A stretch of DNA of 290 bases, from the NCBI RefSeq assembly GCF_003334335.1, contig NZ_QOWQ01000224.1. One strand, given 5' to 3'. Origin of the DNA: Escherichia coli. GTDB lineage: Bacteria > Pseudomonadota > Gammaproteobacteria > Enterobacterales > Enterobacteriaceae. Positions within the stretch are counted from its first letter, which is position 1. Every line of letters begins with the position of its first letter. Under the pieces are notes generated by a model. That model was not told the DNA's origin. It worked only from the letters and a program-made list of their open reading frames with translations, and searched no databases. Positions 1-290 of this stretch are shown piece after piece. Both the position numbers and the translations under genes were made by a program.

Positions 1-42
1 TGAGCTCAGCCAGTCGTACTCGTTTTCCGGGTGACGGAACAT
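1..42 (-). CDS. 5' end of a downstream minus-strand gene (N-terminus MFRHPENEYDWLSS...), product unknown; partial, continues beyond the window
   Basis: ATG at 42..40 shares its A with the upstream TGA (TGATG). The frame stays open for 14 codons to the window edge, using preferred codons (CGT, CCG, GAA, CTG). There is no separate Shine-Dalgarno, as expected for a translationally coupled gene. Only 42 nt are visible, so this could be a chance open frame. Confidence 0.45.
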   Translation of the reverse strand, partial: MFRHPENEYDWLSS

Positions 43-263
43 CAGTTCAGGGTGACGCTCATCAGCCGGACATACGGGCCAAAACTGTCCTTACGGCGTT
101 CTGCAAATACAGCCAGCACACCGGGAATATCCTGCACTTCACGACCGGTATACGCTTCAGTGCCACCATGCCAGCGGTATTTGCCGGTACAGAACGGAAA
201 AAGACGGGATGCAGGATGCTGACGGTGAATACGCATGGCTTCACCACGGGTGATGATTTTCAT
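42..263 (-). CDS. Small basic hypothetical protein (73 aa), function unknown; probably a lambdoid prophage early-region protein, tentatively YdfC-like
   Basis: Complete ORF with ATG at 263..261 and TGA at 44..42. Codon usage strongly favours enterobacterial preferred codons (CGT x7, GGT x4, CTG, GAA, AAA, ACC, CCG). An AGAGG Shine-Dalgarno sits 9 nt upstream of the ATG. The stop overlaps the start of the next minus-strand ORF. The prophage/YdfC resemblance is from memory only and is not verified. Confidence 0.8.
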   Translation of the reverse strand: MKIITRGEAMRIHRQHPASRLFPFCTGKYRWHGGTEAYTGREVQDIPGVLAVFAERRKDSFGPYVRLMSVTLN

Positions 264-272
264 AGTGTGATA

Positions 273-277
273 CCTCT
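273..277 (-). promoter_or_regulatory. Shine-Dalgarno / ribosome-binding site for the 73-aa ORF
   Basis: The minus strand reads 5'-AGAGG-3' (plus strand cctct at 273..277), with a 9-nt spacer (272..264) before the ATG at 263..261. Confidence 0.6.
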
Positions 278-290
278 GAAGACAGAAGAT

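Follow-up and report, generated by a model that had tools for sequence, protein, structure and literature searches.

The closest described relatives of the gene analysed here are yeeT, ykfH and ypjJ of E. coli K-12, which sit on elements called the cryptic prophages CP4-44, CP4-6 and CP4-57. Their products are DUF987 proteins, and no paper in the literature assigns a function to them. Overexpression of YeeT, YkfH and YpjJ caused neither filamentation nor growth inhibition (bioRxiv 10.1101/2023.04.14.536235, Fig. S4). In the same study none of the three derepressed the DicA-controlled promoter dicBp, compared to a 165-fold derepression by Rem (bioRxiv 10.1101/2023.04.14.536235). Constructs with yafX-ykfG-ykfH or yfjX-yfjY-ypjJ plus the cognate toxin-antitoxin (TA) pair left toxicity and cell shape unchanged, and neither the CbtA nor the CbeA homologues autoregulated their operon (PMC5371832). 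In CP4-57, yfjXY-ypjJ-yfjZF ('lfgABCDE') forms one operon which is repressed by MqsA and induced by oxidative stress; here LfgB/YfjY was reported as a protease (PMC10846083). When overexpressed genes were screened for trimethoprim survival, ypjJ scored weakly (3-fold; PMC12924614). On plasmids, anti-defence genes cluster in co-directional early-entry or leading regions (PMC11541004).

The DUF987 gene and its predicted protein

The window, i.e. the whole stretch of 290 nucleotides that was analysed, contained a single ATG ORF in the ORF listing. It occupies positions 42..263 on the minus strand, with the ATG at 263-261 and the TGA stop codon at 44-42, and is a complete CDS of the YeeT/YkfH/YpjJ (DUF987) family. 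The product of 73 aa has a pI of 10.3 and a mass of 8.4 kDa; a recount gave 9 Arg, 3 Lys, 2 Asp, 4 Glu and 1 Cys. An earlier note, made from the letters of this DNA, had described a small basic protein of unknown function with six acidic residues and a single Cys. Position, sequence and counts were confirmed, and the protein can be assigned to DUF987. It matched the Pfam model of DUF987 (PF06174) over its full length (model positions 1-65 of 65, E=4.6e-39) and PHROG 14887 with E=5.4e-37. NCBIfam held no model matching it, PADLOC, which covers defence systems only, gave no match, and a sequence search of the PDB returned noise only (E>0.4). The whole window was 100% identical to the annotated CDS region of WP_001405861.1 from E. 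coli 2009C-3133, labelled 'DUF987 domain-containing protein' in RefSeq. The gene was thus already known: its family, a domain of unknown function, has been described, and an identical member is annotated. Judged by these matches, its identity as a YeeT-type DUF987 protein is near-certain.

The window protein is 94.5% identical to K-12 YeeT from CP4-44, with four differences (R14Q, A18T, G34S and T35A, counted from the DNA alignment), and the genes are set apart by about nine synonymous changes. Both genes have the same place between a radC-like gene and cbeA, the same upstream spacer and the same Shine-Dalgarno site. They differ in location, as the island of the window gene adjoins the gsp/yghD locus and not the CP4-44 site, and in the downstream flank, where CP4-44 lacks a 113-nt remnant ORF which here follows the DUF987 stop codon.

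DNA at least 90% identical to the window was present in 4810 of 5426 complete E. coli genomes, at a median of 3 copies and in up to 15 places per genome. Among the matches listed, 13 complete E. coli genomes were 100% identical. Few uncharacterised ('y-ome') proteins of E. coli are as widespread as DUF987. The length of the frame was exactly 73 codons in all 81 orthologues, drawn from about 60 Enterobacterales species. The median pairwise dN/dS of 77 unique genes was 0.084 at a median dS of 1.2, which shows that the gene is under strong purifying selection. By these measures the window ORF is a real gene, far beyond chance.

All seven near-invariant residues of the family, A9, Y29, A51, R57, D59, G62 and Y64, were found in the window protein, which is single-domain and within the family size of about 70-80 aa. 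The family motif reads GKYxWxGS...GVLAVYxERRxDxxGPYAxLMC, and 42 of 52 diverse members were basic. In the 52-member alignment two positions were split: position 25 was Cys in 24 and Asp in 21 members (C25 in the window protein), and position 69 was Cys in 34 and Ser in 16 (S69 in the window protein). An exhaustive HMMER search of 1.84 billion representative proteins returned no more than 231 clusters (E<=1e-3), and fragments or frameshifted E. coli copies made up many of these; full-length members reached down to about 33% identity. Pfam recognised no second domain in the 52 diverse members, N- or C-extended ones included.

Databases contain apparent fusions of RadC, ArdB/antirestriction, DUF932 or Ag43 with DUF987 (P0121-P0130 and P0258-P0310, from E. 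coli). These were rejected as true architectures. They are 90-97% identical to normal copies and are deletions or frameshifts, because the stop-free spacer between radC and the DUF987 gene lets frames read through. C-terminal extensions of about 75 aa, rich in Lys and Glu and without a Pfam match, were seen in P0189 and P0209, and P0218 (L096/L097:7001-7435) had an N-terminal extension of about 70 aa, also without a Pfam match. The Lys/Glu-rich extensions of these three proteins may be domains or gene-calling extensions. A natural tandem DUF987-DUF987 protein of 159 aa, P0141 (L093:7001-7480), was found on a metagenomic contig, surrounded by Mrr, RadC (1.3 kb away), HipBA, RES and two DNA methylases. 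The tandem hints that the functional unit of DUF987 may be a dimer.

Structure prediction and a Foldseek search, both proposed in the earlier note, were carried out. AlphaFold2 with the 52-member alignment yielded a model with a mean pLDDT of 96.9 and a pTM of 0.84. The predicted fold consists of β1 (2-4), α1 (6-15), β2 (19-30), a loop with a short helical turn, β3 (49-59) and β4 (62-72). The significant Foldseek matches in AFDB50 were DUF987 members only. DUF987 is thus confidently predicted to adopt a compact, basic β-α-β-β-β orphan fold with no structural relative outside of the family. As the predicted fold is without annotated relatives, it gives no mechanistic clue, and the earlier statement that no function can be inferred from the sequence alone still holds. 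DUF987 was taken to be non-enzymatic because it is too small for an enzyme and has no catalytic motif.

The genomic island and the five-gene block

The window gene lies at the edge of an island in the E. coli chromosome. At this locus (L001) it is part of a co-directional block that begins with genes for a GTPase, an HTH protein, a hypothetical protein, DUF905, DUF932, an antirestriction protein of the ArdB/KlcA type and RadC, and continues with DUF987, CbeA, CbtA, DUF5983, DUF957 and DUF4942. The block adjoins the yghD/gsp type II secretion operon. Within the block the window gene is the third in a tightly spaced operon, antirestriction(ArdB/KlcA)-radC-DUF987-cbeA-cbtA, with the ArdB/KlcA gene two genes upstream. 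A further 49 kb of the island contained IS elements, an autotransporter, YagK/YfjJ-type genes and genes for PTS and iron uptake; iron receptors are likewise encoded on the island. In the 30 kb of L001 and the further 49 kb we found no repressor/cro, exo/bet, recET, dicB, kil or phage structural genes. Because the flanks are free of lambdoid repressor, recombination and structural genes, the element is, by its gene content, a mosaic genomic island of more than 60 kb of the CP4 'cryptic prophage' type and not a lambdoid prophage. The earlier note had placed the gene in a prophage early-region cassette. The mobile element was correctly recognised, the equivalent elements of K-12 being the CP4 'cryptic prophages', but the lambdoid early operon had to be given up.

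Conservation of the gene order was examined by a synteny scan which used one genome per species and a 10-member alignment as a query. It returned 80 loci, the neighbours of which were identified by tblastn with the island proteins. All loci were from Enterobacterales apart from contaminated or mislabelled records. The order ArdB-RadC-DUF987-CbeA-CbtA was found in about 75 of the 80 Enterobacterales loci and in nearly all that had flanks. RadC was directly upstream of DUF987, never interrupted, in 75 of 75 Enterobacterales loci with a flank, and the median gap was 9 nt (-17 to 68 nt, n=75). DUF987, in turn, was directly upstream of cbeA in 77 of the 80 loci; here the median gap was 22 nt, extending to 710-740 nt where an optional gene for a 214-aa protein was present. 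Enterobacterial DUF987 loci also turned up in L004 (Mesorhizobium caraganae, a 464-bp contig with a coverage of 0.7) and in L044 and L063 ('Chryseobacterium sp. 18061'). Such loci in assemblies of unrelated taxa are most likely due to contamination or mislabelling.

Within the five-gene block DUF987 evolved slowest, with a mean pairwise distance of 0.18 versus 0.27-0.34 for the others. Slow evolution of this kind is unusual for a presumed conflict gene. Mirror-tree comparisons of DUF987 with ArdB, RadC, CbeA and CbtA gave correlations of r=0.40-0.69, with 0.58 for RadC and the highest value, 0.69, for CbeA. The correlations were similar for all four neighbours; the block is inherited as a unit and no partner is singled out.

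Distant homologues and candidate roles

Homologues with 40-46% identity were found without ArdB, CbeA and CbtA and mostly without RadC. They reside on plasmids or ICE-like contigs beside orphan DNA methylases; the marine and Vibrio-plasmid loci, like other distant ones, had no RadC within 7-8 kb. On a marine contig an orphan C5 DNA methylase is followed by DUF987 and a PAPS-reductase-like gene, with HipBA nearby. Vibrio plasmids carry DUF987 in long co-directional arrays of small genes which adjoin tra genes; these arrays (L096/L097, L091) comprise DUF3150, VWA/AAA_5, DUF2787, a C5 methylase and DUF3085 (L096/L097:14003-14435). DUF3085, which is reportedly enriched on plasmids with a broad host range, has been described next to RadC and predicted to form a complex with it (PMC12826799). 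In another distant lineage DUF987 adjoins a DUF4942 protein, and in another a Prim-Pol gene is near. The enterobacterial five-gene block, together with a methyltransferase, was also found on a conjugative IncHI1B plasmid.

DUF987 is also a phage gene. A homologue with 44-48% identity is encoded by about 69 lytic phages of Klebsiella, which belong to the genus Drulisvirus (Autographiviridae). In KpV71 this is gp07 (46% identity, E=8e-22), which belongs to the same family, PHROG 14887, and has kept the conserved C-terminal motif AVY-ERR-D-GPY-LMC, whereas the W-x-G loop residues are missing from the Drulisvirus homologue. gp07 is among the ten small leftmost ORFs, upstream of the genes for primase, helicase, DNA polymerase and RNA polymerase. 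In phiKMV-like phages the left-end region is the early region and is transcribed by the host RNA polymerase. The setting thus differs from that of the window gene: a strictly lytic phage, the left-end early region, and neither RadC, ArdB nor a TA pair. Indeed, the whole genome of KpV71 contained no homologue of RadC, ArdB, CbeA or CbtA, and no Klebsiella phage was among the matches for RadC homologues. When phages at the Drulisvirus level were defined by an RNA polymerase identity of at least 90% (about 247 records), DUF987 was present in about 28% of the genomes (~69/~247). This patchy presence marks DUF987 as an accessory early gene in Drulisvirus. Published work on Drulisvirus early genes does not describe the homologue. 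Flanks without phage genes, which the earlier note had named as an argument against its reading, are largely what was found for lambdoid genes, yet the distant homologues do lie in the early region of lytic phages. DUF987 is common to islands, conjugative plasmids and the early region of therapeutic-type lytic Klebsiella phages.

The DUF987 gene is under selection, operonic and carried by mobile elements, and it looks translated. Our preferred, though tentative, reading is that DUF987, without being an enzyme, helps mobile elements to become established or to counter host defence. Genomic islands, lytic Drulisvirus phages and conjugative plasmids or ICE-like elements would probably co-express it with entry or establishment genes. 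The stand-alone, non-toxic, basic α/β protein of 8 kDa would then most likely bind a conserved host component stoichiometrically; candidate targets are a host defence or DNA-processing protein, or nucleic acid. DUF987 would be neither part of a toxin-antitoxin pair nor an obligate subunit of RadC. Its autonomy from the neighbours follows from the 40-46% identical homologues that lack ArdB, CbeA, CbtA and mostly also RadC. The counter-defence part of the proposal is based on the neighbours, i.e. ArdB/KlcA antirestriction, orphan methyltransferases and TA modules. Further points are the non-toxic overexpression, the retained basic charge and the patchy accessory distribution. In Drulisvirus the gene lies in the left-end early region, and in islands and plasmids beside antirestriction and methylase genes, where it may belong to an early-entry or leading region. 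Strong purifying selection and the slowest evolution in the block would fit a conserved target. Orphan methylases and TA modules are repeatedly found near DUF987 in co-directional accessory arrays, which resembles the clustering of anti-defence genes; in sequence and structure, however, DUF987 is not similar to any known anti-defence protein. The association with mobile-element neighbours is weak evidence for a role. Two points argue against counter-defence. Anti-defence proteins are often fast-evolving whereas DUF987 is highly conserved, and in Enterobacterales DUF987 is never apart from RadC, so that a RadC-linked role is possible there.

Whether DUF987 even represents a new orphan-fold class of counter-defence or establishment proteins, common to islands, conjugative elements and lytic Autographiviridae, is rather doubtful. 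By direct binding, such a protein would inactivate a conserved factor of host immunity or DNA processing, which would explain why nearly all E. coli genomes have several copies. Should DUF987 indeed help mobile elements to establish themselves or to evade defence, it would matter for the host range of phages and for how islands and plasmids spread; otherwise it would be a passenger gene, conserved within an island module that bears a toxin-antitoxin pair. Because it is ubiquitous in E. coli, conserved, structurally an orphan and shared by islands, plasmids and phages, DUF987 is a reasonable candidate for anti-defence screening.

The invariable position behind radC raises the question whether DUF987 is a partner, i.e. 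an adaptor, inhibitor or substrate, of the RadC-like JAB protein YeeS/YfjY (= LfgB) and modulates its reported protease activity (PMC10846083). The short and sometimes overlapping junction at all 75 loci is in line with such a partnership, and so are the distant tandem DUF987 locus with its RadC 1.3 kb off and the small DUF3085, which is likewise adjacent to RadC and predicted to form a complex (PMC12826799). Yet the Drulisvirus phages checked, with KpV71 as a whole genome, have DUF987 without a RadC homologue, the distant loci have none within 7-8 kb, and the distance matrix of DUF987 correlates no better with that of RadC (r=0.58) than with that of CbeA. AlphaFold2 on a RadC-(G4S)6-DUF987 chain with a 29-row paired alignment gave a pTM of 0.59, roughly the value expected of two independent domains, and thus no confident complex; with its shallow alignment and no PAE this was a crude and weak negative. 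On balance, we consider a RadC partnership unlikely.

By the same token, from its position in front of cbeA, DUF987 could be a third member of the type IV CbtA/CbeA toxin-antitoxin module with an accessory or regulatory task, such as control of the activity or expression of toxin or antitoxin. The close spacing in 77 of 80 loci and the highest distance-matrix correlation, that with CbeA, agree with this, and a regulator is missing as neither CbtA nor CbeA homologues autoregulate the operon (PMC5371832). The five-gene constructs, however, left toxicity and cell shape unchanged, without neutralisation (PMC5371832). Moreover, the DUF987-cbeA junction is a variable breakpoint at which the 214-aa gene or a remnant of it can sit, and co-occurrence is not obligate since distant and phage homologues are without CbeA and CbtA. 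A function within the TA module is quite improbable.

A small transcription factor or antirepressor, which would bind a repressor of the island or of another prophage, or DNA/RNA directly, and switch on genes of the element, is a very doubtful alternative. It was brought up when YpjJ, YeeT and YkfH were found by a relaxed BLAST with the antirepressor FsoA of Fels-1 (bioRxiv 10.1101/2023.04.14.536235), and the largely conserved basic charge and an HTH regulator gene upstream in the island are compatible with it. The dicBp assay, in which none of the three paralogues was active, speaks against it. So does the protein itself: no HTH, RHH or zinc motif is present, as the earlier note had correctly seen for zinc-fingers and helix-turn-helix patterns, and DUF987 is the only Pfam family in 52 diverse members. 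Rem (Qin prophage) and the Gifsy/Fels antirepressors share with DUF987 a similar size and a short look-alike hairpin motif. The N-terminus of K-12 Rem, GLYAVCVENGNLVSHYRIMCL (rem, L102:4652-4903, minus strand), superficially resembles the C-terminal DUF987 hairpin GVLAVYVERRxDxxGPYAxLMCV. Homology to Rem was rejected, as the two proteins have the motif at opposite ends and hhalign of the 52-member DUF987 profile against Rem gave a probability of 0.4% (E=0.14). The look-alike motif probably explains the BLAST-based suggestion of an antirepressor.

Finally, the earlier note envisaged a modulator of host takeover or cell division from a lambdoid early operon, comparable to Kil or DicB. This is highly improbable and already largely refuted by published data. 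In its favour are the small size, the basic charge and the tight packing with other small genes, the antitoxin CbeA and the FtsZ/MreB-targeting toxin CbtA encoded by the two genes that follow, and the phage homologues, which are early genes. However, there are no lambdoid genes within about 80 kb, overexpressed YeeT, YkfH and YpjJ produced no filamentation or growth defect (bioRxiv 10.1101/2023.04.14.536235), and no Pfam family other than DUF987 is similar.

Flanking sequences and overlapping frames

A Shine-Dalgarno-like AGAGG at 273..277 (minus strand) is located 9 nt upstream of the ATG in a segment that is identical upstream of K-12 yeeT. Positions 264..290 (minus strand; L001:15001-15027) are the last 27 of the 68 nt of the spacer between radC and the DUF987 gene and are without an in-frame stop. 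The spacer at L001 is near-identical to the K-12 yeeS-yeeT spacer, and the operon is co-directional.

Frames overlapping the gene were considered. Two further long frames, of 63 aa on the plus strand and of 61 aa in the +1 frame of the minus strand, are not conserved as coding sequence. Of 76 unique homologues, 67 had no stop along the whole antisense frame that is in register with the gene; the +1 sense frame was also often open, for at least 60 codons. Overlapping or antisense coding was rejected; the open frames were attributed to an avoidance of TTA, CTA, TCA and ATA codons. Selection evidently operates on the sense frame since dS is high and dN low there. Rfam returned chance snoRNA-like matches only (E near 1) in the 2.5 kb around the gene.

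Downstream, the sequence departs from K-12 immediately after the DUF987 stop codon. Here an unannotated ORF of 37 codons begins, the first 14 of which are at 1..42 of the window (minus strand; L001:15249-15362 for the entire ORF); its ATG overlaps the DUF987 stop (TGATG). This 113-nt ORF is missing from K-12 CP4-44. Its product was 50% identical to the C-terminus of the 214-aa ORF of L008 (BLASTP, E=2e-8). Probably it is a deletion remnant or pseudogene fragment, the C-terminal part of the optional 214-aa gene. The latter, phrog_5162, has no Pfam or NCBIfam match; some species have it between DUF987 and cbeA (L008:8238-8882; also L019 and L064, near 8780), and these arrangements mark the DUF987-cbeA junction as a recombination or insertion hotspot. 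In L011 the 214-aa gene (near 9151) lies between cbeA and cbtA instead.
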